DNA of 64,000 bases, from the NCBI GenBank assembly GCA_002722455.1, contig PBMB01000019.1, forward strand, positions 16,306 to 80,305, given 5' to 3'. The notes under the pieces are model-generated. The model was given only the letters and a program-made list of their open reading frames with translations. It ran no database searches and was not told the DNA's origin. The stretch comes from Chloroflexota bacterium. GTDB taxonomy: Bacteria > Chloroflexota > Dehalococcoidia > Lucifugimonadales > GCA-2722455. The translations under genes were made by a program, and so were the position numbers. Position 1 is the first letter of the stretch; the number at the start of each line of letters is the position of its first letter. Of the stretch, positions 4,033-61,030 are shown piece after piece.

Positions 4033-4066
4033 AAGGCTTGTTTATCAAGCCTTTTTTTTGTATAAT
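4033..4066 (+). promoter_or_regulatory. Fused terminator/sigma70 promoter
   Basis: Hairpin AAGGCTTG-TTTAT-CAAGCCTT + T-tract; -35 TTGTTT 4038, 17 bp, TATAAT 4061. Confidence 0.8.
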
Positions 4067-4102
4067 TTAACCATCAAAATACTTATATTTAAGGTTATCA
4101 AA

Positions 4103-4819
4103 ATGAAATTGATTCATAATATTAAAGATTCAATCCTTACTTTTTTAAAAGGCAATGACGGCTTTGAAGTTCTTTACAAAAAAGAAGCTAATAATATCGA
4201 TCAAATGAACAAAGATAGTGAAACCTTAATCAAAATGATTCAGACCTTTGAGAACGAAAACAAAGATAATACTGGATATGACGTTTCCCTTGTTCTTGCT
4301 AATCTTGTCAACGAGATGACCAAAAGCGAACAAAATAACAGTTTTAAATTCAACAAGTTATTTTCTCACCTCATTACTAATAAAGTTGCCGCTCAGATTG
4401 AAGACTTAAAGTATCTAATGCTTAAATTAGAAGAAAATAATTTTATTAACACAACAAGTAAAACTGAAATGTATGACCAGTCACAATCAGCAAACCACTT
4501 TTACAGTGTAATCAAAAATGGTGAAGAAAAAGCACTTTATGTTAACTCAACAATTCAGTTTATTGTTTTTATCAAAAAAGAAACAATTTACATTCGCAAA
4601 GTTTCTACCAATGATATTGAAAAAATTATTTCAAATGGCTTTGTTGACTCATTTTTTGATTTATATAATTTTGATTCTGACTTCATTCTTGAATCCGATT
4701 TATTTAATGATTTATCTTTACCCAAATCTCGAATCCAATCAATGTCGTTATTAGAATTGGCTTTGTTTAATATCCATAGTGGAGCTTGCTCTATTGAAAT
4801 CGAATTTAAAGAAGAATAA
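4103..4819 (+). CDS. Hypothetical protein
   Basis: ORF; start placed behind AAGGTT RBS. Confidence 0.65.
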   Translation: MKLIHNIKDSILTFLKGNDGFEVLYKKEANNIDQMNKDSETLIKMIQTFENENKDNTGYDVSLVLANLVNEMTKSEQNNSFKFNKLFSHLITNKVAAQIEDLKYLMLKLEENNFINTTSKTEMYDQSQSANHFYSVIKNGEEKALYVNSTIQFIVFIKKETIYIRKVSTNDIEKIISNGFVDSFFDLYNFDSDFILESDLFNDLSLPKSRIQSMSLLELALFNIHSGACSIEIEFKEE

Positions 4820-4885
4820 TTATGGATCTAGATTGTTCTTGTTTAAAATGTAATGGTCAAGAAATTACGGACGATATTTCACATT

Positions 4886-4920
4886 AAAAGGTTGTTTTTT
4901 GCGACCTTTTTTTGTATAAT
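4886..4920 (+). promoter_or_regulatory. Fused terminator/sigma70 promoter
   Basis: AAAAGGTTG..CGACCTTTT hairpin; -35 4892, 17 bp, TATAAT 4915. Confidence 0.75.
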
Positions 4921-4955
4921 TATCTTATTGAAATGAGAACTTTAAAGGTTATTTT

Positions 4956-5477
4956 ATGCAAGATACTCAGAAACGCCACATTGTAGCAAATCTAGATTCA
5001 GTTGATTTAGGTAATTCCGTTCTTTGTGTTTTAGAATATGACAAAGAAGGTCATTTTCCTACCGACCTTATTGTTGTTGCCGAATATGACGAAATTGACG
5101 ATAAACTAACTTGTGATTTCTCTCGTTTTCCAGATCTTGAAGGTAAAGCAGTTGGTGATGATTCTTTTGACCAATATTTGTCTCTTGTTGACGCTATGGA
5201 AAAAATCTATCTAAACTCAACAAACGACAACGAAAATAAAGTTTCAAAAATTAAGATCCCCGTTTATACTTCTATTGACCATATTAAAAAGAAAAGTGGC
5301 GAAGTTCTTTGTTCAGAAGATTTTGAAAACAAACATATGATTGAGTTTGCAAAAGATAAATGTCATATTGAATATGCAATTGAAGACCACTACCGAAATC
5401 AATCTAACCTAAGTCCATTTGGTGGCATGTTCTTAGACGACTACTTGAAAGACAGAATGAAACGATTAGGTTATTAA
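4956..5477 (+). CDS. Hypothetical protein
   Basis: ORF with RBS and promoter. Confidence 0.65.
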   Translation: MQDTQKRHIVANLDSVDLGNSVLCVLEYDKEGHFPTDLIVVAEYDEIDDKLTCDFSRFPDLEGKAVGDDSFDQYLSLVDAMEKIYLNSTNDNENKVSKIKIPVYTSIDHIKKKSGEVLCSEDFENKHMIEFAKDKCHIEYAIEDHYRNQSNLSPFGGMFLDDYLKDRMKRLGY

Positions 5478-5486
5478 AATTAAAGA

Positions 5487-5524
5487 AAAACGACTTGATT
5501 CATGAGTCGTTTTTTTTGTATTAT
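5487..5524 (+). promoter_or_regulatory. Fused terminator/sigma70 promoter
   Basis: AAAACGACTTG-ATTCA-TGAGTCGTTTT; -35 TTGATT 5495, 18 bp, TATTAT 5519. Confidence 0.7.
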
Positions 5525-5559
5525 ATAACTATTGAAACAAAGCGATAAAGGCTATTGAA

Positions 5560-6144
5560 ATGATTACTTTAAAAGAAAATAAATCTAACGCACCATTGTT
5601 TATCAGCTTCTATAATGTTGTTACCAAAGAAAAGCAAAACAATATTGTTAAATTCGATACTGTTAATGAATTAGCACTTGGTTTGGTTAAAGAAATCCTG
5701 ACTATCGACAAAAAACTGTCTGACGTTGTTGTTGCTGACTTAGATTTTGTTTTACTTGCTAACGGTGATAAAAAAGAAAATCTTTCAACAACCCAAGATT
5801 TTAATCACAAAATGTTACTTGTTCCTTTCTCTGGTTGGAATATCAATCTTTCTGTTGTAAATCGTGGTCGTCGAACTCGACTTTATTTTGCAGACAAAGA
5901 ACTTATGCCTGATTTGGCTGATCCTGATATTGACCTATACCACGTTGTGAAAGTACCTAAGAATATCTCTAAGCATGTTAGTAAAGGTAAAATGATTGTT
6001 TCTTGTTCTGACGAATACGCTAAAATTTACCATGACTCTGCTTACACAATCATTGATACCGTCAATAAAGACGAACTTTATGAAAATATTAACGTAGACT
6101 TTGAAAAATACGACTACTTTATCGCCAAAGAGTTTGTTAAATAA
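5560..6144 (+). CDS. Hypothetical protein
   Basis: ORF with RBS. Confidence 0.65.
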   Translation: MITLKENKSNAPLFISFYNVVTKEKQNNIVKFDTVNELALGLVKEILTIDKKLSDVVVADLDFVLLANGDKKENLSTTQDFNHKMLLVPFSGWNINLSVVNRGRRTRLYFADKELMPDLADPDIDLYHVVKVPKNISKHVSKGKMIVSCSDEYAKIYHDSAYTIIDTVNKDELYENINVDFEKYDYFIAKEFVK

Positions 6145-6216
6145 TTTTAATAAGGCACTTTCATAGTGCCTTATTTTTTGATATAATAAAGAATAGTTAT
6201 AAAAGGAGTGATCATC

Positions 6217-6369
6217 ATGATTATGAATATTTTAGCTAAAATCTTTTTATCAAAAGAAGCCAGAGAACTTGCTGAAATTGCTCGTGAGCAAAATTGTCAG
6301 TTTAAAATGACTCAAAATAGTGGCGGATACTGTATACACAGAATTGATAATGTAGATAAGAAAAAATAA
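6217..6369 (+). CDS. 50-aa hypothetical protein
   Basis: AAGGAG RBS; MIMNILAKIFLSKEARELAEIAREQNCQF...; flanked by promoter and terminator. Confidence 0.6.
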   Translation: MIMNILAKIFLSKEARELAEIAREQNCQFKMTQNSGGYCIHRIDNVDKKK

Positions 6370-6471
6370 ACAGCTTTCTTGGCTGTTTTTTTTATTTTTA
6401 AAACAAAACCTTTCTTTTCTCTAACTATTGTTGTATAATACAATCAGTTTGAAACGTTAAGAGAAATTTAA

Positions 6472-6789
6472 ATGCAGTTTTTTATTAGTCAAAATGGACA
6501 TATCCTTGCTATTGATTTTGAAGTAAATCTATCAAATATTGATGGGCAAGTTTCTATTTATAACAATGAAGAAGAACTGCAGTTAGACTACCCTAACATT
6601 ACAGACAATGACATTTCTAACAATATCCCTGTTCTGACGAAAAAAGTAACTGGTGAAGACGTTGAATATTTTCTCAATTCTTCCAAACTTAACAACGAAC
6701 ACGTTAGCTTAAGTTATGATGAAGATATTGAAGATTGGATTTCCGTGCAAGCTGAAACTTTCTCGACTAACTCAGGTTTACATTTCTAA
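6472..6789 (+). CDS. Hypothetical acidic protein
   Basis: ORF with promoter. Confidence 0.6.
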   Translation: MQFFISQNGHILAIDFEVNLSNIDGQVSIYNNEEELQLDYPNITDNDISNNIPVLTKKVTGEDVEYFLNSSKLNNEHVSLSYDEDIEDWISVQAETFSTNSGLHF

Positions 6790-6803
6790 GAGAGGATTAA
6801 ATT

Positions 6804-7079
6804 ATGGTTAAAATGCACCCTATGTTCAAAACGTCAATCCCTAGTGGTTTAAGCAAATCGCAAAAAGAATTGTTTGATAAATTATCCAATAAAGGCTATC
6901 AACTATTCTGTAACGAGGGCGAAAAATACCGTTGTTGGATTGAAAAAGGCAGTCAAAAAGCTTATGTTGATAATCGCACGGTCAATGCCTTATCAAACAA
7001 AGGCTATTTACTTCCCGATGATTCTTATCAAAATGATAAAATCGCCAAGTTCCGAATGAAACTAAATACTCGACTATAA
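6804..7079 (+). CDS. Hypothetical protein
   Basis: ORF with GAGG RBS. Confidence 0.6.
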   Translation: MVKMHPMFKTSIPSGLSKSQKELFDKLSNKGYQLFCNEGEKYRCWIEKGSQKAYVDNRTVNALSNKGYLLPDDSYQNDKIAKFRMKLNTRL

Positions 7080-7088
7080 GGTTAAATA

Positions 7089-7373
7089 ATGAAATTCCAT
7101 TCTGTTTCTCATTTAATTGAACAGCTTAAAGACCCAAGCCTGTTTGAAAAAATCAGAGAGTTATTTCTTTCTGGTAAAATTGGTGAATCACTTGGTAAAA
7201 GCCCTGCTGAGTTTGACGTTTTTTATATTGACACATTAGATTGTTGTTTGAAAATCAAAAACAAATCGGCTGTAGTTAATTTTGGTCGTGGTAAAGATCC
7301 TTATGGTGAAGAACCCAACCATTTTATCAAAATACCGCATGGATTTATAAATAATGAAACTATAGAACATTAA
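7089..7373 (+). CDS. Hypothetical protein
   Basis: ORF with AAGGT RBS. Confidence 0.6.
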   Translation: MKFHSVSHLIEQLKDPSLFEKIRELFLSGKIGESLGKSPAEFDVFYIDTLDCCLKIKNKSAVVNFGRGKDPYGEEPNHFIKIPHGFINNETIEH

Positions 7374-7395
7374 ATAATTCTTTTATTTTTAAAAC

Positions 7396-7429
7396 AAGCC
7401 TTGCTTTTATAGCAAGGTTTTGGTATTAT
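7396..7429 (+). promoter_or_regulatory. Fused terminator/sigma70 promoter
   Basis: AGCCTTGCT-TTTAT-AGCAAGGTT; -35 7401, 17 bp, TATTAT 7424. Confidence 0.8.
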
Positions 7430-7452
7430 ATGTGCATTAACTAATTGACGTT

Positions 7453-8012: not shown

Positions 8013-8074
8013 TGTAGCATTTTAAACCATATCTTGTTATAATAACCCTATCTTAATTAGCGAGAATATTCACT

Positions 8075-11067: not shown

Positions 11068-12981
11068 ATGGACATTTTTAATAAAATAACTGTAAAAACA
11101 AAATTAGTGATTATTTGTATATTAGTCGCTTCTTTATCTCTAATTTATGCAATATTTGAAAACCACAGCATAAATAAAATAATTGAACTTGAAGATATTA
11201 AATCATTAAATTGGAAAGTTGAGGCTGAAATATTAACATTAAGAAGACACGAAAAAGATTTTCTTAATAGACACGAATTTAAATATGTTGATAAATTCGA
11301 AAAAACAATGGATCATTTAATTCACGATCTTGAAGAACTAGACCAATACTATTCAGACGTATTTAATGACAATCATTCTTCTGGTTATTTAGAAATCCGT
11401 GATAAATTAAAACACTATGACGAAATCTTTCATAAAATTGGTCAAGAGTATAAAACACTATATCAAGACGGTGGATTATTACTTGATATAAAAACATTGA
11501 GACATGAAGTAGAAGCAGAGCTTATAAAAAATATAAAGTTACTGAGAAAATCTGTTGAAACTGAATTATTAAAAGGTCAAGATATTCAGCAAGAACATTA
11601 TTTCTTAGTTATGATTGAAAGTGATTATGAGTTTTTAATCGATCATACTCAAAAGAACTTAAACGCTTTCATAAAAGCAAAGTCTGACTTTACTGAATCT
11701 ATTAAAAATTCAAAAAATCCTGCTCTATTAACTAAAACTGAAGAATATATAAATGCTTATTCTATTTATATTGATATTATATCAAGAATTGGTTTTAAAT
11801 ATGATGAAGGTATGTTATTAGAACTAAGAGAAGATGTCCATGCAGCAGAAAAATTTATTATCAATAAAATTCGAGAAATAGATATTATTATTAGAAATGA
11901 AATTTCTATTGTTAAATCAGAATTACATTATTTTTCTATCTTTATTACTGGTCTTTCATTAACTTCCATTATTTTTGTCGCTTATCTAATTAGCGGCAGA
12001 ACAAGATTACTAATGAATAAAATGGATAATGTTGCAAATGGTGATAGAGATTTAACAACTAGATTAACATTGAAAGGCAACGATGAATTTACAACTATTG
12101 CTAATCACTTCAACACTTTTGTTAAAGGTTTGCAAGAATCATTTAAAGAAATAAAAGACATATCTTTAACTATAGATACAAGCACTAATAACTCTTTAAA
12201 CAATATTGAAAAAACAGAAGAAAATTATCAATCAACCTTATCTGAAATAACACATATGGGTAGTGCAATCCATGAAATGGTTACTGCCAACAAAGAAATA
12301 AGCAATGCCTTAATGCAAGCAGATTTTTCTGCTGAAAATCTTAAAGGTGTTAATGACGAAGCACATAAAATATTTGTTGAATCTAACGAAAAAGTTGCAA
12401 ATCTTTATTTACAACTAATTGAAGGTCAAAAACATATTGATGAACTTCATCATAAATCAGAAAACATACAATCTGTAACTCAATCTATTCAAAATATAGC
12501 CTCTCAAATCAACTTACTTTCCTTAAATGCAGCCATTGAAGCCGCAAGAGCAGGAGAGCACGGAAAAGGATTTGCTGTTGTTGCTGACGAAGTTAGACAG
12601 CTTTCAATACAAACAGATCAAGCTACAAACAATATTGATTCGACAATTCAATCATTAAAAAAAGAAATTCATGAAGTTATTGACCTTATGAAAAGTGCTT
12701 CAAATGTCGCAGAGAGTACAAGTGAACATAGTGAAGAAGCTACGCAAAAATTTGGCACTGTTTATGATCACACTATGGATGTTAAAGACCGAATGACACA
12801 AATCTCAACCGCAAGTGAACAACAAAGCTATGCTAACAAGGAAATTGACGTTAATTTACAAAGTATTACAGGATTTTCAAACAATATTGCGAATGATATT
12901 TCGAGTTGTCGTGAAGAAGCTAAAAACATAAATGATAAAGCGAGTAAACTTACACATATAGTGGATCAATTTAAAATCTAA
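11068..12981 (+). CDS. Methyl-accepting chemotaxis protein
   Basis: Two TMs around a periplasmic domain, HAMP ([12 protein letters not shown]), signalling tip [34 protein letters not shown]. Confidence 0.95.
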
Positions 12982-13076
12982 AACATAAAAAGCGGCTTTT
13001 AGTCGCTTTTTGTTCTTGTTTTTTGTTTTTGTTTTTGTTATGGTATTTGTCATCCATAACAAAGAGAAATTTACAA

Positions 13077-13988
13077 ATGTCCATTAAAATCAAGAAATCA
13101 AAACATTCAGTATCTTTTGAAACAGAACTTCAAACCATTCCTTTAAACAAAGATTACTCTGTTTTTAAATCTGTTCGTAAAGAGATTAAAAATGGTAAAA
13201 CCGTTAATACCGAAACAACACAAGGGGTGTCTTTAAAATCTGAGATTAATAAATTAGTCGAAGAAGGTCGAGTTGTAAGCCCTGATTCTAGTTTTGTTTT
13301 TTACACCGAAGATGTTCGACACTTGCTTACTCATTATGGCTTTCCTCGTTTTTACAACGTAACTCAAATGTGTAACAGCAAAGGTGAAGTGCTTGAGCTT
13401 CAAGAAGCTTGGTTAAAGTCATATTCAGAAGCTGCCATTGATTTCGATTCTGTTGCCAACGATCTTTCTTTGCTTGATAACATTTTACGCCTTGACAGTT
13501 TTCAACACGTTCCAAAATTTGCTTCTACTAACAAAGTAGCAAACTTTGCTATTAGCACTGAAAATCTTTTAATCAAATCAGAATATATTGGTTCTGAGTT
13601 TGTCCCTACTTTGGCAGAACTTATCAAACAAGAACGTTTGTCATTTGAGTTAATCGACGAAATTGATTATGAACTTGCGACTAACATTCAAGAATATCAA
13701 GTTCGTAAAACAGTTTCTGAAAACTTGGTTAGTTATGTCTCAGGGATTGGTCAATGTATTCACCATACAACTGTTGTTAGTTTTACTGACGAAGAGTTTG
13801 AAAAACTTATGACACTAAATAACGAACTTCAAAAAGAAAGTAAACACAGATTACACTCAGATATATCCCTTGTCGGTGTTGCTCTATTTAAACTTGATCT
13901 TTTCAATATTTCAAGTGACTATTATGGTTATGAAGACGGCAACGTTTATAAAACTCGTGACGATTTTGAATACGAAGACGATTGTTAA
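13077..13988 (+). CDS. Hypothetical protein
   Basis: Long ORF; start behind GAGA RBS. Confidence 0.7.
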   Translation: MSIKIKKSKHSVSFETELQTIPLNKDYSVFKSVRKEIKNGKTVNTETTQGVSLKSEINKLVEEGRVVSPDSSFVFYTEDVRHLLTHYGFPRFYNVTQMCNSKGEVLELQEAWLKSYSEAAIDFDSVANDLSLLDNILRLDSFQHVPKFASTNKVANFAISTENLLIKSEYIGSEFVPTLAELIKQERLSFELIDEIDYELATNIQEYQVRKTVSENLVSYVSGIGQCIHHTTVVSFTDEEFEKLMTLNNELQKESKHRLHSDISLVGVALFKLDLFNISSDYYGYEDGNVYKTRDDFEYEDDC

Positions 13989-14068
13989 AAAAAACAAATT
14001 AACTCTTGATTTTTAAGGGCTAGTTATATAAAATCTCACTATCTTAAACAAACACAAAGAGAAAAATT

Positions 14069-16263: not shown

Positions 16264-17301
16264 ATGAAAAAATTTATTGTTGGTTTAAGTGTTTTCATTA
16301 CGTTAAATACTTACGCAACTGACTTTAATGTAATCATTTCGAAAGAAAATAATAGCTATGACGTTGCAAAAGGATATATCATTGTAACTGAAACGACAAA
16401 CTGGACAACGCTTTCTAACGCTTGTTCTGAAACTACACCTCTTGAAAATATCTACTTTGGCGTTTCTGTTAATGAAGAAGTTGTGTGCCAAGATTACCAA
16501 GAAAGAGATAAAATAACTAAAAAAGTCTATAACAGTGGAACAGAAGAAATATTAAATACAGAAACAGAATCTCAATATATTGAAACGTCAAGAAATACAG
16601 TTACATTAGTTGGAACACACCAAGAAGATACTTGCTTAAATATACAGACATTCGACAATACATTACCTGACGGTCAATATTCTGTCTTTATTGATAACTC
16701 TGAAATACACGTATTATGCGATATGACAACTGACGGTGGAGGTTGGACTAAAGTTGCCAGAATCAATCCAAAAGCGACTCTTGTTGTTGAAAGTGATTCT
16801 TGGCAAAGCATTCATAACTTAACTTCTTACAGTGGTTCACATGCATTAAAATACTTAGCTAAATTTAATCCACAAAACATATTATTTAAAAACACTTCTG
16901 TTGAACCCTATTATGGTGGTGATGACTTGATTATTGTTTCAAGAACAACAGGAGCTTGGAATTGGATTCCATATAATTACAACAACAACAGTCAACAAAC
17001 CGCTCGTTTTTATGACGCTTCTGCAGATTCTTGGAATAATTTAGGAAATGCTACTTACGCTTCTCATGAAGGAAATCCTTGGCAACAAGCTTCACTTTCA
17101 TTTACCATTAATGGTATACAGAATGGTTATCGATCTGAGCAGGATAACCGATTGATTTTAGGACCTACTTTTTCTAGTATTTCAAGCAGTAGCGCACGTT
17201 GGTTTAACTTTTATGGAAATGAGGCTTCAAGTGTTAATAATGCTTGGTCAATGGGAACAAACAGTGATCAGAATGCCACTGGCGAAGTTTGGATGAAATA
17301 A
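16264..17301 (+). CDS. Secreted fibrinogen-related domain protein
   Basis: Signal peptide MKKFIVGLSVFITLNTYA; TC..I....LPDGQYSV...VLCDMTTDGGGWTKVA. Confidence 0.8.
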   Translation: MKKFIVGLSVFITLNTYATDFNVIISKENNSYDVAKGYIIVTETTNWTTLSNACSETTPLENIYFGVSVNEEVVCQDYQERDKITKKVYNSGTEEILNTETESQYIETSRNTVTLVGTHQEDTCLNIQTFDNTLPDGQYSVFIDNSEIHVLCDMTTDGGGWTKVARINPKATLVVESDSWQSIHNLTSYSGSHALKYLAKFNPQNILFKNTSVEPYYGGDDLIIVSRTTGAWNWIPYNYNNNSQQTARFYDASADSWNNLGNATYASHEGNPWQQASLSFTINGIQNGYRSEQDNRLILGPTFSSISSSSARWFNFYGNEASSVNNAWSMGTNSDQNATGEVWMK

Positions 17302-17319: not shown

Positions 17320-17353
17320 AAACCTTGTTCAATGAGCAAGGTTTTGTTATAAT
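17320..17353 (+). promoter_or_regulatory. Fused terminator/sigma70 promoter
   Basis: AAACCTTGTTC-AAT-GAGCAAGGTTT; -35 17325, 17 bp, TATAAT 17348. Confidence 0.8.
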
Positions 17354-18662: not shown

Positions 18663-18730
18663 GTAGGTTTTTATTGTTGGATTTATTTTGGTTTTTCTTC
18701 AAAGACAAAGAACTTAGCCAACAACACAAT

Positions 18731-18765
18731 AAAGCTTTGCAACTGCAAAGCTTTTTTTGTATAAT
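18731..18765 (+). promoter_or_regulatory. Fused terminator/sigma70 promoter
   Basis: AAAGCTTTGCA-AC-TGCAAAGCTTT; -35 TTGCAA 18737, 17 bp, TATAAT 18760. Confidence 0.8.
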
Positions 18766-20890: not shown

Positions 20891-21073
20891 TTTTTGTTAA
20901 ATACATTCATTAAAATTATATGATGCACCGTTTTTATATGAAATTACATTAAGTTTTTGTTTTATTGAAATATTACTCGTAAAATAATTCTATAATAAGC
21001 GAATTATTTTTTTACTTTCGTTTTTAATTCTTGTATTATTAACTCAATTAATCAACCAAATTAAGGAAACACA

Positions 21074-22261
21074 ATGAAGTCAAAAATCTTTGCCTCGGCT
21101 CTTATTGCAGCTATGTCTTTTTCTGCTAATGCTGTAGTTGGTAATCCTGACGGGGTAAGAGCAAGTTTTAACAACTATCCATTTTTCGCACAACTTGGTC
21201 ATCTTGTTGACTATGGTAACGGTGATGGCGTGGAATTCGGACAATTTTGTGGTGGCTCTATCATTTCTGCCGATCAAATCCTAACAGCAGCTCACTGTGT
21301 CGATGACTATGTTTATGGCGGCAAAGATTTCACTAAATTAAAAGTTCTTGTTTATAACAATGAAAAACAATATATTGGAATGCAAGAAGTTAAAGGTGTT
21401 GACAACATTATCATCATGGGTAGTGCTGATGACGCTTTAACTGGAACAGATTTATATTTATCTCGTAACTACCCAAGTGGTGTTTATGAAGAATCTACGA
21501 CCCCTGCTGCCAATGACGTTGCTATTATCACACTTGAGAGCGCAATTCAAGACAATGTTCGAGTTGCCAATCTTGCCCACAGTGTAAACAATTCACTTTC
21601 TTTGAATGACGGTGATTTATTGCAAGTTGCAGGTCAAGGTAAAGATTCGATGGTATACAAATATACCGATTCAGATGGTAATTTGGTTTATGACGCTCAT
21701 GACGACTCTACCTTTAACGAAGCTGATACTGTTTTTGTTGATGACACTTCTTGTTCTAGTTTGGGAACGAGTCTTGTAGACATAAACATTGAAAAGTCTC
21801 AAACAATTTGTACAACACACATTGATTTTTCTAACAATCAATTAGGTCGTGCTTGTTCTGGTGACTCAGGAGGACCATTAGTTCGTTCTGGTGTTCAAAT
21901 TGGTATTGTAAGTCGTGGTTCTAGTGGTTGTTCAGATGACGGATACTCAATGTTTGTAGACGTTCAAGATCCAGAAGTTCAAGCATTTATTGATCACTAC
22001 AAAAATTCTGATACTTTACCTGCATTCGTCCCTGTTTCAAACGGTATTGCAACCCAAAAAAGTGTTGGTGACGGTCTTACTAATTTAGAAGTTTGTGCAG
22101 ACTTAGGTATTGATTCAACTAATTGTCCTGACGGTTCAATGAGTGACGGTGGCGGTAGTGATAATGGTGGTTCTAATGGCGGTGGCGGTGGCGGTGGCTC
22201 TACTGGTCTACTAACGCTACTTGGTCTTGGTCTACTAACACTACGTCGAGTTAAAAAATAA
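21074..22261 (+). CDS. Secreted trypsin-like (S1) serine protease with GlyGly-CTERM anchor
   Basis: Signal peptide; FCGGSII..ILTAAHC, NDVAII, CSGDSGGPL triad motifs; C-terminal GGGGGGSTGLLTLLGLGLLTLRRVKK. Confidence 0.95.
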   Translation: MKSKIFASALIAAMSFSANAVVGNPDGVRASFNNYPFFAQLGHLVDYGNGDGVEFGQFCGGSIISADQILTAAHCVDDYVYGGKDFTKLKVLVYNNEKQYIGMQEVKGVDNIIIMGSADDALTGTDLYLSRNYPSGVYEESTTPAANDVAIITLESAIQDNVRVANLAHSVNNSLSLNDGDLLQVAGQGKDSMVYKYTDSDGNLVYDAHDDSTFNEADTVFVDDTSCSSLGTSLVDINIEKSQTICTTHIDFSNNQLGRACSGDSGGPLVRSGVQIGIVSRGSSGCSDDGYSMFVDVQDPEVQAFIDHYKNSDTLPAFVPVSNGIATQKSVGDGLTNLEVCADLGIDSTNCPDGSMSDGGGSDNGGSNGGGGGGGSTGLLTLLGLGLLTLRRVKK

Positions 22262-22370
22262 GAGAAACAAATAAACATAAAGAAAAGCCTGTCAAAGACA
22301 GGCTTTTTTATTGCCTTAAAAACACTACTTTGATATAATAACACTAACTTAAATAATTGGTATATTTACA

Positions 22371-27963: not shown

Positions 27964-27998
27964 AAAAGGTTGTTCTCTTAGCAACCTTTTGCTATTAT
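27964..27998 (+). promoter_or_regulatory. Fused terminator/sigma70 promoter
   Basis: AAAAGGTTGTT..AGCAACCTTTT; -35 27970, 17 bp, TATTAT 27993. Confidence 0.8.
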
Positions 27999-28318: not shown

Positions 28319-28353
28319 AAAGCCTTGCTTAGTCAGGGCTTTTTTTGTATAAT
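28319..28353 (+). promoter_or_regulatory. Fused terminator/sigma70 promoter
   Basis: AAGCCTTG..CAGGGCTT; -35 28325, 17 bp, TATAAT 28348. Confidence 0.8.
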
Positions 28354-33438: not shown

Positions 33439-33459
33439 AATTATTCAATTTTAAAACAA

Positions 33460-33495
33460 AAAAAGGTTGCTTGTTGCGACCTTTTTTTATATAAT
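33460..33495 (+). promoter_or_regulatory. Fused terminator/sigma70 promoter
   Basis: AAAAGGTTGC-TTGTT-GCGACCTTTT; -35 33467, 17 bp, TATAAT 33490. Confidence 0.8.
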
Positions 33496-34576: not shown

Positions 34577-34686
34577 GCCACAATATTTATATAATTAAAG
34601 CCTCAAACTTGAGGCTTTTTTTATTGATTAAAATCCTTTATTTTAGTATAATTTACTCAACTTAAAAACAAATCAAAAGGTGTAAA

Positions 34687-35196: not shown

Positions 35197-35295
35197 AGTG
35201 TTCAAAAAAGAGTCAATTATTGGCTCTTTTTTATTGCCCCAAATCTCATTCTTTGCTATAATTAACGCAGTTAAAAAGAAAGATATGGTGAAATT

Positions 35296-41090: not shown

Positions 41091-41126
41091 AAAAGGTTGA
41101 ACTGTTCAACCTTTTTTTTGTATAAT
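41091..41126 (+). promoter_or_regulatory. Fused terminator/sigma70 promoter
   Basis: AAAAGGTTGAAC-T-GTTCAACCTTTT; -35 41097, 18 bp, TATAAT 41121. Confidence 0.75.
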
Positions 41127-49587: not shown

Positions 49588-49606
49588 TTGTTTTAAAAAT
49601 AAATAA

Positions 49607-49641
49607 AAAGCCTTGTCTATACAGGGCTTTTTTTGTATAAT
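49607..49641 (+). promoter_or_regulatory. Fused terminator/sigma70 promoter
   Basis: AAGCCTTGT-CTAT-ACAGGGCTT; -35 49613, 17 bp, TATAAT 49636. Confidence 0.8.
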
Positions 49642-50533: not shown

Positions 50534-50655
50534 CTGATTGATTTTAAATAGATAATTTTATTTAAAAAGTCACATTATTGTGGCTTTTTTTATTGATTTT
50601 TGATTTGTTTTATTGTATAATTAAGCCATAGATTAAATGATTAGGTTGAAACTAA

Positions 50656-51164: not shown

Positions 51165-51199
51165 TAAACCTTGCTTTTTAAGCAGGGTTTTTTTATAAT
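51165..51199 (+). promoter_or_regulatory. Fused terminator/sigma70 promoter
   Basis: AAACCTTGCTT-TTT-AAGCAGGGTTT; -35 51171, 17 bp, TATAAT 51194. Confidence 0.8.
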
Positions 51200-51234: not shown

Positions 51235-51804
51235 ATGAGCAAGAAATCTCGTCTTTTTGCCGACAAAAAACATCAAGAAGCAGGAACGCTATTTAACGGC
51301 AAAAGATACCGTGTTCATACTGATGGCGTTGCTAACATTGTTAAAAACACAATTATCACTTACCCGTCATACGTAGACAGAATGCAACTATTAACCTATT
51401 CTGTTGAAACTGCCGATTTACACGATACACTTGAAGATACAGACACTACATTTGAAGAACTTGTTTCAGAATTTGGTGAAGTCGTTGCTAAGTCTGTTGA
51501 TAACGTAACTGATATTGACGCAGAAAATCGTGAAGAACGTAAAAGACTTACCATTCAAAGATTTGCTCATTTTGAAGTAAGTGTTCTATCCGAACTTATT
51601 GCATTGATTGTAAAACCTGCTGATCGCTACCATAACTGGTACACAGCTATCAAGCTAAACCAGAAAAAATACATTAAAATGTATTACCGTGAATATCCTA
51701 TATTCAAGCTTTCTGTCTACCGTCCTGATTTGGTCGAAAAGCTATGGAGCGACTTAGACGAACTTGATTTATATGTTCGAAAGAACTACAATTTTACTCG
51801 ATAA
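51235..51804 (+). CDS. HD-domain hydrolase, RelA/SpoT/Mesh1 small-alarmone-hydrolase-like
   Basis: FA.KKH..G..YRVH..GVA, LHDTLEDT..TFEEL..EFG..VA..V..VTD, IVKPADRYHN. Confidence 0.85.
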   Translation: MSKKSRLFADKKHQEAGTLFNGKRYRVHTDGVANIVKNTIITYPSYVDRMQLLTYSVETADLHDTLEDTDTTFEELVSEFGEVVAKSVDNVTDIDAENREERKRLTIQRFAHFEVSVLSELIALIVKPADRYHNWYTAIKLNQKKYIKMYYREYPIFKLSVYRPDLVEKLWSDLDELDLYVRKNYNFTR

Positions 51805-52445: not shown

Positions 52446-52470
52446 AAATAACTTGTTTTAAAAACAAATA

Positions 52471-52505
52471 AAAACCTTGCTTTCATAGCAGGGTTTTTTT
52501 ATAAT
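52471..52505 (+). promoter_or_regulatory. Fused terminator/sigma70 promoter
   Basis: AAAACCTTGCT..AGCAGGGTTTT; -35 52477, 17 bp, TATAAT 52500. Confidence 0.8.
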
Positions 52506-52876: not shown

Positions 52877-52980
52877 TTTGTTTTAAAAATAGTAAAATAA
52901 ACCTTGTTTTTTAATTTTTGTTTTGCTATTATATATTCTCAGTCAGGGCATTCACCACTATCTAAGCAAAGGGCAAGATT

Positions 52981-55279: not shown

Positions 55280-55315
55280 AAACCCCTTGCTATCCTAGTT
55301 AGGGGTTGCTATAAT
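55280..55315 (+). promoter_or_regulatory. Hairpin-embedded sigma70 promoter
   Basis: AACCCCT..AGGGGTT; -35 TTGCTA 55287, 17 bp, TATAAT 55310. Confidence 0.7.
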
Positions 55316-56463: not shown

Positions 56464-56533
56464 TAATATTTTCAAATCAACTTGATAAATCTAAATTTTT
56501 GTTTTAATATCGCAAAAAAAGGAATTATCAAAA

Positions 56534-57130: not shown

Positions 57131-57294
57131 TTCTAAAGGGTTTATTGAAAACTTCCTTTTTTTTCGAAAAAAAAGACAAAAAATGGTTTCTTTTTCTTGC
57201 TTTTTAAAAATAGGCTTGCTATTATATATCCATAGTCAAGGGGGCAACAACGAAACGCTTCCAAATCAATCACTTAAATAGAGAGAACTTCACT

Positions 57295-57780
57295 ATGACA
57301 GCTACTAAAACTACTTCAACTCGTGGTCGTAAATTCAACAAATCAAAATATGCTATCACTCGTGCTTGGGAAATCGCTCGAAACGCAGAAGTAGCGCATA
57401 ACACTAACCCAGTAGACGTTGCTCAACGTGGTCTAGTTAAAGCGTCAGAATATTTCGCTATTGCCCTAAAAGAAGCTTGGAAAGAAGCACGTCAAAAAGC
57501 GGCTAAACTTGAAAACATTGAAATGTATGTTCTTCATAAAGTGCCTAAGAAGAACCAGAAAAAGATTCTTAACGCTATCGACATGCTAATCGAAACAAAA
57601 GCGTCAATTGGTGAAACTCCAACAAACCAAATGATTGCGGAAACTGTTTTCCAAGCACGATACACTACACCGTCAGCTATCAGCTCACACCGTCATATCC
57701 GTGATTCAATCGCAGAAGTGGCAGCAACAAAAGAGCTATCAGAAGCGGTAATCGGTGAGTCTACTTACTCAGTAGCATAA
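57295..57780 (+). CDS. Phage-type hypothetical protein, probably highly expressed
   Basis: RAWEIAR..FAIALKEAWKEAR motif; biased codons (CGT, GCT, ATC); AGTCAAGG-class promoter. Confidence 0.7.
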   Translation: MTATKTTSTRGRKFNKSKYAITRAWEIARNAEVAHNTNPVDVAQRGLVKASEYFAIALKEAWKEARQKAAKLENIEMYVLHKVPKKNQKKILNAIDMLIETKASIGETPTNQMIAETVFQARYTTPSAISSHRHIRDSIAEVAATKELSEAVIGESTYSVA

Positions 57781-57907
57781 AACCAAATTAAAGAAAAAGC
57801 CCTTGCATTGCAGGGGCTTTTTTTTGCTTTTAAAAAACAAAATTGCCTGGTTTTTAATCGGATATGCTACTATAATACTATTAGAAACTAACGGAAAGGT
57901 TAAAATT

Positions 57908-58189
57908 ATGAACACTAAGGCAAGAAAAGAAACTATCATTAATATTCATAGAGATTTAAACGCTACTCTGTCAAGCTATAAAGTCACTATTTTATTTACA
58001 TTTATCTTTATTTCTGTTCATACATTATTTTCTTTGTCTTTTAGTAATGAAAATACGTTTGGTTATGAAATTGCTGCTAGAAATTTAATGATCATTGCCT
58101 TTGGTTTTTTCAATCTATTTATATGTTTCTTAAATGCTGCCACGCACAAAGAAAATCTAAAAAACAACATCGATTTACTTTTGAAATAA
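57908..58189 (+). CDS. Two-TM protein
   Basis: Start behind AAGGTT RBS. Confidence 0.6.
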   Translation: MNTKARKETIINIHRDLNATLSSYKVTILFTFIFISVHTLFSLSFSNENTFGYEIAARNLMIIAFGFFNLFICFLNAATHKENLKNNIDLLLK

Positions 58190-58201
58190 CAAGGTTAAAA
58201 T

Positions 58202-58501
58202 ATGCTTCTATTTACTCTTAGCGAAACAAATGTAAAACATGAACTTTATCGAAACTATGATTGTTTTAAAAAAGCAAAGAAAAAACTAAATTCTTTTCTG
58301 AGCTTTTACATTTCCTTTATCATTGTCTGTTTCTCGGTTTTAACGGCTGTTGAGGCTCAACCCGTTACATTTGCTATTGCTTTTGTGTTTGCGTTTTTAG
58401 GTTTAATGTTCCTTTTCCCTATTCAACAAGTGTATATGATTAGAAAAGAAAACCTGAATGATTCTGTCGATTATTTTAAGGTCTTGTTAAAACATTCTTA
58501 A
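58202..58501 (+). CDS. Two-TM protein (likely paralogue of the previous gene)
   Basis: Shared KENLxxxxD tail after the second TM. Confidence 0.6.
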   Translation: MLLFTLSETNVKHELYRNYDCFKKAKKKLNSFLSFYISFIIVCFSVLTAVEAQPVTFAIAFVFAFLGLMFLFPIQQVYMIRKENLNDSVDYFKVLLKHS

Positions 58502-58517
58502 TAACGCAGAGGTCATT

Positions 58518-58712
58518 ATGGGTAGAGTTTCTAGCAAAAAGGCAAGACATATAATGTGTAATGCTTGGAATGCTTCAACAAATGATTGCATAGCTCATGT
58601 GGTTCGTGGTAAAATAGTGTTCAACTTTGGGTTAGACGAAAGAATCCCATATAACTATGTTGTCACCGATCCCGTTTCTTTAATAGGCGAAAAATTAAAG
58701 GTTAAAAAATGA
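58518..58712 (+). CDS. Small hypothetical protein
   Basis: GAGG RBS. Confidence 0.55.
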   Translation: MGRVSSKKARHIMCNAWNASTNDCIAHVVRGKIVFNFGLDERIPYNYVVTDPVSLIGEKLKVKK

Positions 58713-58957
58713 AATATTTAGTTCACTTCATTACCAACGAAAAAGCACAACTTGGCGAAAATCGCTATGCCAATGCTGTAATTACTGCCCCTACAAAAGA
58801 ACAGGCTATTAAACAGGCTTCATTTCGTCCACATTTTAAAGAAGCTTTCTTAGTCGTTGTTAAGCACCATAGTCGAATTGAAAAAGTTATTGACGCTATG
58901 GTTGCTAAATATGGACACCATGACGGAATCCATGACATTCGAAAAGAAACAGCTTAA
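58709..58957 (+). CDS. Small hypothetical protein
   Basis: ATGA overlap. Confidence 0.6.
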   Translation: MKYLVHFITNEKAQLGENRYANAVITAPTKEQAIKQASFRPHFKEAFLVVVKHHSRIEKVIDAMVAKYGHHDGIHDIRKETA

Positions 58958-59051
58958 ATTATTTAAAAAAAGACCTTTTCTAAGGTCTTTTTTTGTTTTA
59001 TTGTTTTATTTTTGCTATAATTAAGTCCTACCAATTAATCAGGATAGAACA

Positions 59052-59645
59052 ATGCCTAAGCAATACAAAATCAAAGCAGAACTAAACAACATGACTCTTA
59101 CTGTTTTCTCTGAAAGTCGTTATGGTAAAGATTTTCTTGGACGTATTATCTTTATGTCTACTGAAAATAATTCTTCTGTCTATCAAATTTCATGTGTTGT
59201 TTCTCGTAAAGGTTTTGGCTTTATGACATATCAATGTTTGCTTATGGCTGCAAAAATTAACGGCTTCACTGTTTGTAGTGATCGTGACACTGAAACAACT
59301 GAAACTTGCTTTATTCTTTGGAATAAGCTTCACAAGCTTGATAAAGCAATTCGCAACCCTTTATCTGAAAAACTAAACCATAAGTTTTTAGAGTTCACCT
59401 CAGAGGAAGAATCACCAGAAATGTTTGCTTCTTATTCATTAGAACCTACGCCCTATTTCCTAGATAATTTCGGTGTTGTCAAGGAAGATAGTTTTGCAGA
59501 AACAGCCAAAGAACAAGGTTGGGATGATTTTTTTGAAAAAGCTTATTATTCAAATGACGCTGAATATCGAGAGGAAAACCATTTTATTGATGCTGATTTT
59601 CCAATGAATATTGAAGTCGATAAATCACACGAAATTGTCTATTGA
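59052..59645 (+). CDS. Hypothetical protein, possible GNAT fold
   Basis: YQISCVVSRKGFGFMTYQ..SD....WNKL resembles the GNAT acetyl-CoA loop. Confidence 0.5.
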   Translation: MPKQYKIKAELNNMTLTVFSESRYGKDFLGRIIFMSTENNSSVYQISCVVSRKGFGFMTYQCLLMAAKINGFTVCSDRDTETTETCFILWNKLHKLDKAIRNPLSEKLNHKFLEFTSEEESPEMFASYSLEPTPYFLDNFGVVKEDSFAETAKEQGWDDFFEKAYYSNDAEYREENHFIDADFPMNIEVDKSHEIVY

Positions 59646-59714
59646 TTTCTTGCTTTGTTGTTTTATTTTTTGTATAATAAATCCAAGTTAATTAAAAGAG
59701 TTAGAGAATAAATT

Positions 59715-60149
59715 ATGCCAATACTATCAATTAAAAATCAACTAAAAATCGTTTCTTTTGACGCAGAAGATGCAGTAATCAATGTTGCAAAAGGTGATTT
59801 TGAAGTCTTTGGAGCTGTTGAAGAAATCAATCTTGTTCTTCAAGGTCAAGAGTTTGATATTGAATCTGCAAATTGGGAATATGTTTACGAAGACGATCCT
59901 GAAAATGCTTCTATTTTCTCTGACTACTGTGTTCTTGCGGTTACAGACAGTAAAGATACTGGCTATCAAGTTGTAGACCCTTACAATGCGATTGACGAAG
60001 TTGATAACTACAAACATTGTGACAATTTTGGTCTTTTTGAGATTCCTTGTGGCAATGGAGGTTGTTGTTTTATTTACACAGCTAAAAATGATTCTGGTGA
60101 AATCATTGCTGTTAAAGTTTGTGGTGTTCACCCCGAAGATATGGAATAA
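59715..60149 (+). CDS. Hypothetical acidic protein
   Basis: ORF. Confidence 0.6.
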   Translation: MPILSIKNQLKIVSFDAEDAVINVAKGDFEVFGAVEEINLVLQGQEFDIESANWEYVYEDDPENASIFSDYCVLAVTDSKDTGYQVVDPYNAIDEVDNYKHCDNFGLFEIPCGNGGCCFIYTAKNDSGEIIAVKVCGVHPEDME

Positions 60150-60239
60150 TGCCAATTTAACCAATTAAACGCCCTGTTACGCAGGGCGTTTTTTTTTATT
60201 TTTTTTCCTTGCTTTTCTTTGTCTACTAACCTATAATTA

Positions 60240-60414
60240 CTCTTAGATTAAGCAAACAAATAAGCCTTAGTCCAAGGTTGACAACCTAGCCGCTCTTACA
60301 CTTGGTAAATCGTCTTTATACTACAAAAAAAGAAACTTTCACTTTATCTTAATTGATATTTGAAAGCTAACGAAAAGAGCAAGTTTATCAAATCAAACTT
60401 TTAGGAAAAACAAA
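60240..60414 (+). ncRNA. Candidate structured 5' leader RNA (copy B)
   Basis: AGGTTG 60275-N7-AGCC-N7-CACTTGGTAAA 60299; GCTCTT 60292/AAGAGC 60375 stem; inner CTTTCA/TGAAAG hairpin. Confidence 0.55.
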
Positions 60415-60984
60415 ATGAAAGCTAAAAATCTATTTTCTCTACTTACTCGCAAAGAACTAACCAACATCGCTACCGAAATTGCTAACTGCAAAGTTCACGG
60501 TATGAAAGTAAAAGCAAATCAATTTATTGAAGCTATCGCACAAATGAACGGCAAAGGTTCAGAAGCTTTACTTAATGATATGAATAATGAATCATTGTTC
60601 TCGTTTAATGACTTACACGCTATCTTTGACCATTCTTCTGGTGAAACTGCACTTGCTGCTATTGGCTTCTCTATATCTGTTAACGGTTTCTGGGATCGCA
60701 GTAAAATCCGTGTGTGTGAAGGCACATTTGAAGAGAACTCTATCTTTATGCGTGATGTCCGTGTTGAATTTACGGGTTCTTCTAATGGCGTTGATAATGA
60801 TATTGACCTATCAACCAATGAACGCAATAGAAACTTACGTATGGCTATCAACGCAGCCTTTGAGCTTGCAGAAACAATCAACTCTAACAAAAGACAAATC
60901 AAAAGTGAAAAAGATCTTCAAAAGCTAATTCAGGAAGAATGGGAAATTCGACATATTCAAAAAGAAAAAGCAACTGTCTTATAA
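60415..60984 (+). CDS. Hypothetical protein with N-terminal Glyoxalase_8-like helical domain
   Basis: LTRKELTNIATEIA..KVKANQFIEAIAQMNGKGSEALL. Confidence 0.65.
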   Translation: MKAKNLFSLLTRKELTNIATEIANCKVHGMKVKANQFIEAIAQMNGKGSEALLNDMNNESLFSFNDLHAIFDHSSGETALAAIGFSISVNGFWDRSKIRVCEGTFEENSIFMRDVRVEFTGSSNGVDNDIDLSTNERNRNLRMAINAAFELAETINSNKRQIKSEKDLQKLIQEEWEIRHIQKEKATVL

Positions 60985-60996
60985 TCTTAACATTAG

Positions 60997-61030
60997 AAGC
61001 CTTGATTCACTCAAGGCTTTGTTATACAAT
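60997..61030 (+). promoter_or_regulatory. Fused terminator/sigma70 promoter
   Basis: AAGCCTTGA-TTCAC-TCAAGGCTT; -35 61002, 17 bp, TACAAT 61025. Confidence 0.75.

Follow-up and report, generated by a model that had tools for sequence, protein, structure and literature searches.

The closest described counterparts of the elements analysed here are the promoter-early stem-loop (PeSL) cassettes of T4-type phages. For the coliphages RB49 and phi1, the report by Arbiol et al. (2010, PMC2839356) describes composites of a sigma70 promoter and a stem-loop in ORFan-rich regions, reports both promoter and terminator activity, and distinguishes five subclasses by stem-loop position, overlap with the -35 among them. 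In KVP40 and nt-1, the PeSL consensus is A3-4G3-loop-C3T3-4 together with TTGYVH-N17-TAWWAT (Comeau, Arbiol, Krisch 2014, PMC4122927). Phage morons, as outlined in PMC2839356, are likewise single genes bracketed by start and stop signals of their own, with promoter and terminator kept separate and not forming a conserved repeated unit. Finally, PMC6978380 and PMC10372574 indicate that RNA polymerase kept on the DNA after intrinsic termination can restart at a nearby promoter.

We analysed a stretch of 64,000 nt (the window; 31% G+C), in which an initial annotation had proposed that the -35 box lies inside a terminator hairpin at 15 or more places. Stable hairpins with this fused geometry are indeed present at 15 of the 16 listed plus-strand sites. 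In the common layout, a TTG sits in the 5' arm, the spacer of 17-18 bp consists of the 3' arm plus T-run, and the next feature is a -10 resembling TATAAT. In a MAFFT alignment anchored on the TTG the stems fell out of register, so the whole assembly was scanned by rules instead. The elements of the window are given below, with single-hairpin folding energies and z-scores (each site against 200 dinucleotide shuffles) and, for some, their state in the close relative L028.

4029..4066, plus strand: fused junction, 12-bp stem, -35 TTGTTT at 4038, 8 T, TATAAT; -14.5 kcal/mol, z -4.9; conserved in L028.
4886..4920, plus strand: fused junction, -35 TTGTTT at 4892, 7 T, TATAAT; -10.7 kcal/mol, z -4.6; identical in L028.
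5483..5524, plus strand: fused junction, 15-bp stem, -35 TTGATT at 5495, spacer 18, 8 T, TATTAT; -13.9 kcal/mol, z -4.5; identical in L028.
6149..6190, plus strand: variant, terminator hairpin with TTCATA in the loop, T-run, TGA TATAAT.
7396..7429, plus strand: fused junction, -35 TTGCTT at 7401, 4 T, TGG TATTAT, TTTAAAACAA box upstream; -13.2 kcal/mol, z -3.7.
14003..14034, plus strand: weak candidate only, 7-bp stem without T-run, TAAAAT; -4.1 kcal/mol, z -1.5.
17320..17353, plus strand: fused junction, -35 TTGTTC at 17325, 4 T, TGT TATAAT, TTTAAAACAA upstream; -12.5 kcal/mol, z -5.6.
18731..18765, plus strand: fused junction, -35 TTGCAA at 18737, 7 T, TATAAT; -12.6 kcal/mol, z -3.9.
22262..22370, plus strand: tandem-register junction, terminator, T-run, ATTGCC (-35), 17 nt, TGATATAAT.
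27964..27998, plus strand: fused junction, -35 TTGTTC at 27970, 4 T, TGC TATTAT, TTTAAAACAA upstream; -11.3 kcal/mol, z -4.1.
28319..28353, plus strand: fused junction, -35 TTGCTT at 28325, 7 T, TATAAT, then a CCTTATC box; -10.5 kcal/mol, z -2.4.
33458..33495, plus strand: fused junction, 13-bp stem, -35 TTGCTT at 33467, 7 T, TATAAT, TTTAAAACAA upstream; -15.8 kcal/mol, z -5.7.
34577..34686, plus strand: tandem-register junction.
35197..35295, plus strand: tandem-register junction.
41091..41126, plus strand: fused junction, -35 TTGAAC at 41097, spacer 18, 8 T, TATAAT; -10.7 kcal/mol, z -4.3.
49605..49641, plus strand: fused junction, -35 TTGTCT at 49613, 7 T, TATAAT, then a CCTTATC box; -13.8 kcal/mol, z -4.8.
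50534..50655, plus strand: tandem-register junction.
51166..51199, plus strand: fused junction, -35 TTGCTT at 51171, at least 6 T, TATAAT; -12.6 kcal/mol, z -4.0.
52470..52505, plus strand: fused junction, -35 TTGCTT at 52477, at least 6 T, TATAAT; -14.6 kcal/mol, z -6.1.
52877..52940, plus strand: degraded element in intergenic sequence, AAACCTTG 5' arm and promoter TGCTATTAT kept, 3' arm gone.
55281..55315, plus strand: promoter with doubtful terminator, internal stem mismatch around -35 TTGCTA at 55287, T-run of 2, TGC TATAAT; -13.8 kcal/mol, z -3.0.
60996..61030, plus strand: fused junction, -35 TTGATT at 61002, 3 T then GTT, TACAAT; -13.1 kcal/mol, z -4.8.
63841..63878, minus strand: fused junction, hairpin, 7 T, TGC TATAAT (TGCTATAAT), -35-like TCGAAA in the loop.

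The minus-strand site had been suggested as a probable further case near 63864; its hairpin, run of 7 T and TGCTATAAT are present (63878-63841), and the hexamer in the loop is TCGAAA, without the TTG.

All 16 listed plus-strand sites carry a TTG and a -10-like hexamer (TATAAT at 11, TATTAT at 3, TACAAT and TAAAAT at 1 each), separated by 17 nt at 14 sites and by 18 nt at 5495 and 41097. Folds at 15 of them range from -10.5 to -15.8 kcal/mol (z -2.4 to -6.1), and the exception is 14006, where 20 of the 200 shuffles fold equally well. Stems span 9-15 bp with loops of 3-6 nt (14 sites), giving the terminator-type stem, short loop and U-run. The T-run after the stem has at least 6 T at ten sites, exactly 4 at three and 3 or fewer at three; the six with 4 T or fewer may include some that terminate poorly. 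An A-run forms the stem base at 15/16 sites and supplies the AT-rich tract upstream of the -35 that characterises PeSLs. At seven sites with long T-runs, TTTTTTTG lies directly 5' of TATAAT and is not a canonical TGn extended -10. As had been claimed from the letters alone, stem sequences vary while pairing and spacing persist: the three positions before the TTG (-1, -2, -3) alternate between C:G, G:C and A:T or T:A, are paired in 14/14 sites, and covary with the 17-bp spacing retained. One G.U wobble is common to four elements. This anatomy supports reading each element as an intrinsic-terminator-like hairpin and a putative sigma70-type promoter combined in one unit of ~35-40 bp.

We scored this geometry with a detector that requires a TTG, a spacer of 16-18, a -10 matching at 5 or more of 6 positions, and a stem that includes the TTG, stops short of the -10 and has 7 or more pairs, 3 or more of them G-C. 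On the window's plus strand, 14 of 85 promoter-like sites have the fused form, and the minus strand has 1 among 31; the site at 55287 is not caught at this stringency. The same detector finds a mean of 0.2 sites and a maximum of 2 in 200 dinucleotide shuffles against the 14 real plus-strand sites, and we rejected a chance or compositional artefact on this basis. Across the assembly, the rule-based scan gives 13.8 fused sites per 100 kb on contig C19 compared with 38 sites in the remaining 2.37 Mb. The TTTAAAACAA box, described initially as often lying upstream, is enriched in the window (14 occurrences, 3.45 expected) and stands in exact form at 5/16 sites; at 49613 and 52477 it is present as its reverse complement.

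With the same detector, Vibrio phage KVP40 yields 8 sites of the same design in the 149.8 kb examined, for example AAAAGGGTTGC-ttcg-GCAACCCTTTT-tgcg-TATTAT. The likeness to PeSL cassettes drawn in the initial annotation is apt, and closer than it stated, because KVP40 has the same geometry; since such cassettes are published (PMC4122927), the design is of a known kind. The elements share with the KVP40/nt-1 PeSLs the A-run, the G/C clamp, the TTG in the 5' arm, the loop, its complement and the T-run, the 17-18 bp spacer holding that T-run, the TATTAT/TATAAT -10, a conserved box after the -10, and a location between small ORFan genes. They differ in that the clamp is 2-3 nt here (GCC, GG or CC) but GGG there, G+C is 31% here and 42% there, a T4-like core gene was not found in the present assembly, the fused form is accompanied by an equally common register with the terminator directly 5' of the -35, and the indels relative to L028 do not fall at elements. 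In the 100-150 kb stretch of RB49, by contrast, the common form is a GGGG/CCCC hairpin wholly within the spacer and without a T-run (7 sites), and the fused detector found no element of the A-run/T-run type. Unlike in morons, the stop signal of a gene here uses the same bases as the start signal of the gene after it. In summary, the design itself is already known, and the replicon is new for it.

A wider stop-then-start punctuation occurs in two fixed registers, and the fused junctions make up one of them. Of 94 terminators on C19, 47 have a -10 no further than 100 nt away, and their distances from stem to -10 are bimodal, with 14 terminators at 5-9 nt (fused) and 14 at 29-31 nt, where the T-run abuts the -35 and the terminator stands directly upstream of the promoter. 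The previous stop codon lies 12-75 nt upstream of the TTG at 15/16 sites and the next ATG 23-36 nt after the -10 at 14/16, mostly with an AAGG ahead, which is the intergenic position before a Shine-Dalgarno sequence and start codon that PeSLs occupy. The elements are co-directional with genes in 15/16 cases (the plus strand holds 104 of 117 ORFs). As in PeSL surroundings, the region is rich in ORFans: 8 of 102 window proteins match a PHROG at 1e-5, and the median ORF on C19 is 137 aa.

We consider it about 80% probable that the fused elements are compact stop-then-start junctions of PeSL type. One competing reading, which we regard as very unlikely, takes the palindromes not as terminators but as operators, at which a dimeric regulator would sit across the -35 and spacer. 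Inverted repeats overlapping the -35 and spacer are indeed the classical position for a repressor, and some sites are preceded by a further AT-rich palindromic box, TTGTTTTAAAAACAA; against this, the stem sequence is unconserved and pairing alone is kept, loop length varies from 3 to 6 nt, and all stems have flanking A- and T-runs, as do the stand-alone terminators that follow convergent genes in the window. Comparably improbable is that the elements are terminators only, their -10 and -35 matches being by-products of T-runs in AT-rich sequence. The 31% G+C of the window favours such by-products, and loose promoter matches mean little here, as 20 kb yields 104 promoter-like sites in a generic scan and shuffles yield 92. 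Yet a TTG at promoter spacing (16-18 nt) accompanies 16 of the 22 terminators with a -10 at 4-10 nt downstream and only 8 of the 72 others, the spacer is exactly 17 nt at 14 of 16 sites, the -10 falls into two sharp registers, and the distance to ribosome-binding site and ATG is fixed. Moreover, the same promoter consensus and downstream box also occur without hairpins: at the 39 TGnTATAAT sites on C19+, the three TTG positions (-23 to -21) match in 37, 31 and 28 of 39, and this TTG and the T-rich spacer are the same with or without a hairpin. Least probable is that the elements are copies of a small, dispersed MITE- or REP-like mobile repeat whose promoter and terminator features are incidental, since the similarity of three element pairs between unrelated genes, which stops sharply at about 50 nt, and the same G.U wobble in four elements are outweighed by most pairs being just 33-65% identical, by the location of all copies between genes, in the same orientation and at a constant distance from start codons, and by our seeing neither terminal inverted repeats beyond the hairpin, nor target duplications, nor any presence/absence difference from L028.

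The PeSL-type junctions could be followed in L028, the one close relative, over 20 kb at 96-97% identity. All 7 elements in the shared region are retained, with TTG and -10 unchanged in each and stem changes that keep pairing; the element at 18737 has two loop changes and one A-to-G that preserves a G.U pair. Some 7-8 changes fall within the ~266 nt of the elements, a divergence not evidently lower than the 3-4% overall, so purifying selection is not demonstrated at this depth. The initial annotation had further suggested that the junctions serve as recombination handles, its most interesting inference, which tested negative on a small sample: none of the 4 indels relative to L028 lies at an element. 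All four have breakpoints at short direct repeats, one within a gene and three spanning a gene and adjoining intergenic sequence. Three element pairs between unrelated genes are 77-81% identical over 57 nt (4892/33467, 79%; 28325/49613, 81%; 51171/52477, 77%), and one tandem duplication takes in its junctions; these leave room for the recombination idea.

From the base sequence we infer termination and initiation at the junctions as follows. The transcript of the upstream gene would form an RNA hairpin of A-run, 2-4 nt G/C clamp, TTG, loop and complement with a U-run after it, as in an intrinsic and possibly bidirectional terminator, with release predicted within the T-run just 5' of the -10. 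As duplex DNA, the same bases would act as a promoter of the host sigma70 type, with the TTG as -35, the 3' arm and T-run as a T-rich spacer of 17 bp and TATAAT as -10, and the A-run with its TTTAAAACAA box would sit where an UP element is expected. Initiation of the next transcript would be expected ~7 nt past the -10, some 15 nt beyond the previous 3' end, and this transcript would carry a short leader with an AAGG ribosome-binding site. Such overlap is easy to evolve, because the replicon's general promoter consensus already consists of a TTG, a T-rich 17-mer and TATAAT. Polymerase recycling, as presented in the reports cited above, offers a possible analogy in that the promoter here would lie at the release point, but it is a mechanism and not a sequence family.

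The assembly holds 204 terminator-to-promoter junctions, 93 of them in the two fixed registers and none on 'core' contigs. The accessory contigs (about 1.23 Mb) are AT-rich and ORFan-rich and lack a recognisable capsid, terminase or RNA polymerase gene. They have 99 tRNA genes, arranged in tandem arrays, a full-length Pol I of their own, and additional TilS-like and TrpRS-family genes. Because CTA-anticodon tRNAs are present, we considered stop-codon recoding and rejected it, as reading TAG or TGA as sense brought no gain in coding density. Gp23, Terminase_6N, DNA_pol_B, TerL_ATPase and HK97 capsid were not found as T4-like or other phage hallmarks in the 2.48 Mb assembly, which is 89% complete; the rest of the replicon may be unbinned, and the Gp23 search matched no control genome either; one gp30.2-like protein is present. 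Searches for relatives gave little. Window positions 11068-13988 had no match in phages by megablast, nor did two large accessory-contig proteins by tblastn; three window proteins and one alignment found no close relative among viral contigs, one of these queries giving only 34-38% identical HD-domain matches without fused elements. The junction DNA pattern had 3 single matches in viral contigs, none a fused element, and searches of genome contigs gave no match. The protein of 16264-17301 had no real match in 400 other genomes of the same order, and its C2 paralogue, without a junction downstream, is uninformative. Rfam assigned no family to the window. We offer only tentatively, as a rather unlikely possibility, that the fused junctions are the densest part of a replicon-wide punctuation, representing PeSL-style modularity beyond the T4-like phages, whether in a giant mobile element not yet recognised, in a group of huge phages or in a divergent cell, with the fused register as a hand-over point where the terminating polymerase would re-initiate.

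These elements open no new mechanism; they extend the PeSL design of the KVP40 type to marine DNA that is very AT-rich and has no demonstrable T4-like character. The existence of two discrete registers, the fused form being one, offers a useful rule for placing promoters and terminators when similar 'dark' replicons are annotated. For genes that are otherwise unannotatable, the junctions provide a sequence-level map of transcription, in which the predicted units are short, frequently comprising one or two genes, and each has its own strong promoter of host type.

All 16 plus-strand sites that the initial annotation had proposed as fused terminator-promoter junctions (numbered here by the window coordinate of the -35 TTG) carry TTG, a -10-like hexamer and, between the two, a spacer of 17 nt (18 nt at 5495 and 41097). 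RNA folding returned a single hairpin at 15 of them, with energies between -10.5 and -15.8 kcal/mol (z between -2.4 and -6.1). The hairpin at 14006 is unconvincing (-4.1 kcal/mol, z -1.5), and 55287 has an internal stem mismatch and a T-run of 2. We also used a strict detector that demands TTG, a spacer of 16-18 nt, a -10 with at least 5/6 matches, and a mismatch-free stem of seven or more pairs, three or more of them G-C, that spans the TTG and stops before the -10. Of the promoter-like sites in the window, it accepted 14 of the 85 on the plus strand and 1 of the 31 on the minus, while 200 dinucleotide-preserving shuffles gave a mean of 0.2 sites and a maximum of 2. The observation of fused hairpin-promoter sites is thus confirmed, and from their sequence we put the probability that they are fused terminator-promoters of the PeSL type (promoter-early stem-loop cassettes of T4-type phages) at roughly 0.8. 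Across the assembly, strict sites number 16 (13.8 per 100 kb) on C19, the 115,854-bp contig (31.5% G+C) that holds the window at positions 16306-80305, versus 38 in the other 29 contigs (2.37 Mb). The proposed minus-strand site near 63864 stands in part: it has the hairpin, a T7 tract and TGCTATAAT, but TCGAAA occupies the -35 position instead of TTG.

The TTG test was rerun without the -35 requirement on the 94 plus-strand terminator-like hairpins of C19. A -10-like hexamer lies 4-10 nt past the last stem G/C in 22 of these, and in 16 of the 22 a TTG is located 16-18 nt upstream of the hexamer, every time within the 5' arm; the remaining 72 have TTG at the equivalent place in 8 cases, under a more generous criterion. 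This enrichment and the shuffle result are the independent support for the fused design. Stem sequences vary while pairing is kept, as claimed: at the three positions ahead of TTG, the 14 strict sites differ in base and still pair (position -1: C:G 9, G:C 4, T:A 1; -2: C:G 8, G:C 5, A:T 1; -3: G:C 6, A:T 7, G:T 1). This pairing is partly guaranteed by the site-selection rule.

The preceding stop codon lies 12-75 nt ahead of TTG in 15 of the 16 sites, and the next ATG follows 23-36 nt past the -10 in 14, usually with AAGG before it. Given how intrinsic terminators and sigma70 promoters are known to behave, we infer that release in the U-run would leave the 3' end of the upstream transcript directly ahead of the -10, and that a start about 7 nt past the -10 would place the next 5' end about 15 nt beyond the previous 3' end. 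The T-run is at least 6 in 10 sites and at most 4 in the other 6, so terminator strength probably differs between sites. In seven long-T sites TTTTTTTG directly precedes TATAAT; it is not the canonical TGn extension, which occurs at 7401, 17325, 27970 and 55287.

A strong -10 lies within 100 nt of 47 of the 94 plus-strand terminators of C19, the corresponding figure for the minus strand being 2 of 59. On the plus strand, the distances between the last stem G/C and the -10 show two peaks, with 14 cases at 5-9 nt (fused) and 14 at 29-31 nt, where the T-run leads directly into the ATTG of the -35 (tandem register).

Classes of the 94 junctions between consecutive plus-strand window ORFs, strict criteria (the strict -10 rule skips some of the 16 sites, e.g. 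5495)
Fused: 11/94
Tandem: 6/94
Terminator and promoter at other spacing: 6/94
Promoter only: 19/94
Terminator only: 13/94
Neither signal: 39/94

The promoter class occurs on C19 both with and without hairpins. At 39 plus-strand TGnTATAAT sites of this contig, T, T and G occupy positions -23, -22 and -21 in 37, 31 and 28 cases, and the spacer is T-rich. As TTG and TATAAT with 17 T-rich bases between them already make up the consensus, the promoter can accommodate the 3' half of a terminator. A box past the -10, TATAATNNNCTTAT, occurs 5 times versus 0.09 expected.

PeSLs were described in RB49/phi1 (PMC2839356) and later in T4/PST and KVP40/nt-1 (PMC4122927). The unit comprises an AT-rich tract, a sigma70-like promoter, a stem-loop, a Shine-Dalgarno sequence and a start codon (PMC4122927 and PMC2839356; in the latter, the stem-loops fall into five positional subclasses, -35 overlap among them). 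The nt-1/KVP40 form reads A3-4G3-loop-C3T3-4 and TTGYVH-N17-TAWWAT (PMC4122927). With the -10 relaxed to at least 4/6, the same detector was run on three stretches of KVP40 (149.8 kb) and found the fused geometry at 8 sites. These combine an A-run and GGG with a TTG that falls in the 5' arm, followed by the complementary bases, a spacer containing a T-run, and TATTAT; the structural stretch at 195-245 kb has no site of this type. RB49 (100-150 kb) usually shows another form: at 7 sites a GGGG/CCCC hairpin without a T-run sits entirely within the spacer. The likening of the junctions to PeSLs is therefore borne out, and the anatomy first described is that of the KVP40 type, since the KVP40 sites match it and the RB49 form differs.

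The junctions had also been proposed to act as recombination handles, with gene-content breakpoints falling at them. The sole comparison was with L028, a metagenome contig from a close relative that matches window 3215-23585 at 91-97% identity in five blocks, four of them at 95-97%. L028 keeps 7 of 7 elements of the shared span, with TTG and -10 unchanged in all. The six strong elements together have two changes at 4038 (A-run, loop) and three at 18737 (a pair of loop changes and an A-to-G retaining a G.U pair), and the rate within elements is not clearly under the overall 3-4%.

Indels between the window and L028
9575: 158 nt
18674-18701: 457-nt ORF missing from the window, present in L028
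About 19300: 153 nt
20913-22083: 1,170 nt missing from L028

Short direct repeats are found at the breakpoints of all four indels, one of which lies within a gene while three span a gene and adjoining intergenic DNA. None of the four coincides with a fused element, and the handle proposal is not supported by this one test. The 1,170 nt absent from L028 take in the promoter and the larger part of the trypsin-like protease gene (21074-22261). This loss and the window's lack of the 457-nt ORF suggest gene decay via deletions at short repeats.

Some features of the window are nevertheless hints in favour of recombination handles. Three element pairs are alike over 57 nt (4892/33467, 79% identical; 28325/49613, 81%; 51171/52477, 77%), with the likeness stopping sharply at about 50 nt and unrelated flanking genes, and the same G.U wobble is common to four elements. 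Only two genes of the window are paralogues of each other (61731-61994 and 62228-62491); they form a tandem duplication that takes in its junctions, and the duplicated 300-nt unit (61680-62476; copies 85% identical and 497 nt apart) holds a promoter, an 87-aa gene and the beginning of the next junction. Site 52877 has kept its 5' arm and promoter and lost its 3' arm.

A greedy call gave 201 ORFs on C19, with a median length of 137 aa; 89% are encoded on the plus strand. Part of this DNA recurs in other sequencing data: DNA runs X2-X9 contain 43-73% of its sequence words, and metatranscriptome runs X15, X16 and X18-X20 contain some of it. PHROG matches at 1e-5 were obtained for 8 of 102 window proteins. 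Among the 16 largest, 6 have a Pfam match at 1e-3, 4 of them above the curated cut-off (MCP-like, trypsin-like protease, methyltransferase, HAD_SAK_2). Outside the window, 7 of 69 C19 proteins match Pfam, including NUDIX, metallophosphoesterase, AdoMet decarboxylase and dCMP deaminase domains; this part also holds an array of seven tRNA genes and a gp30.2-like protein with 1,450 phage matches, mostly T4-type, at about 28% identity. The MCP-like protein (11068-12981; 637 aa, HAMP plus MCP signalling domain) lies within an ORFan array and matches phrog_8572, and its signalling-domain DNA matches MCP genes on contigs C2, C21 and C25 at 73-82%. A possible sigma-like or anti-sigma factor of the replicon is a 301-aa protein (1178-2083, minus strand) with a weak Sigma70_r4 match (E 8e-4, under the curated cut-off). 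In intergenic 3081-3140, the motif ATTATCCCC / GATATCCCC occurs three times as short palindromes ahead of a terminator. The HD-domain protein at 51235-51804 has a 38% identical relative in L021, a viral-collection record (IMGVR_UViG_2974536336_000001; 1,473,573 bp, 26% G+C at the locus), with no fused element in the 17.6 kb of it that were examined.

The contigs of assembly GCA_002722455.1 split cleanly into an accessory-like class (C1, C2, C11, C12, C15, C19, C21, C22, C25) and a core-like class formed by the others. No contig is mosaic, and the bin may therefore hold two entities. With C19, the accessory-like class amounts to 1.23 Mb (26-31.5% G+C) and has short ORFs; its terminator-like hairpins number 1,179 and its terminator-to-promoter junctions 204.

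Contig classes (core-like; accessory-like without C19; C19)
Size: 1.26 Mb; 1.11 Mb; 0.116 Mb
G+C: 32-36%; 26-30%; 31.5%
Median ORF: about 300 aa; 155-262 aa; 137 aa
Terminator-like hairpins: 217; 1,026; 153
Strong -10 sites: 257; 796; 124
Terminator-to-promoter pairs within 100 nt: 0; 155; 49
Pairs with gap 5-9 nt: 0; 9; 14
Pairs with gap 29-32 nt: 0; 56; 14
tRNA genes: 37, mostly single; 92, largely tandem arrays; 7

A protein family with five paralogues is common to C19, C1 and C2; it was detected in none of the 400 other genomes searched from the same order and has 11 matches among 5.8 billion proteins, 9 of them at 40-98% identity. Pfam matches were obtained for 20 of 58 large accessory-contig proteins, including MsrAB, M3 peptidase, MCPs and TnpB, and PHROG matches at 1e-8 for 2 of 59 tested; profile searches of the assembly found no capsid, terminase or family-B polymerase. 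Beside the core copies, the accessory-like contigs carry second copies of Pol I (full-length; a 908-aa open frame matching DNA_pol_A in full) and of a PP-loop/TilS-like gene, and a third TrpRS/TyrRS-family gene. The 99 accessory-like tRNAs lie largely in same-anticodon tandem arrays, with 10 consecutive tRNA-Glu(ttc) on C1 and other arrays of 8 tRNA-Asp and 9 tRNA-Leu.

Second copies of cell-type genes, accessory-like contigs
C15:42422-43576
C25:47362-47886
C12:71781-72620

tRNA arrays
C1:72117-116643
C22:14224-15042
C15:11807-12811
C11:8824-30475
C2:34280-34959

Two tRNAs with a CTA anticodon, at C19:101986-102054 (L011:1681-1749) and C11:30399-30475, would read the amber codon. We rejected stop-codon recoding on these contigs, as reading TAG or TGA as sense neither lengthened the ORFs nor raised coding density.

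C19 may belong to a huge phage, to a giant element resembling a plasmid or to a second, divergent cell. The assembly has one RNA polymerase beta-prime gene, on a core contig. The sigma70-type promoters of C19 and its lack of a polymerase of its own speak for dependence on a bacterial holoenzyme. The fused design is of an already known kind; its carrier is new.
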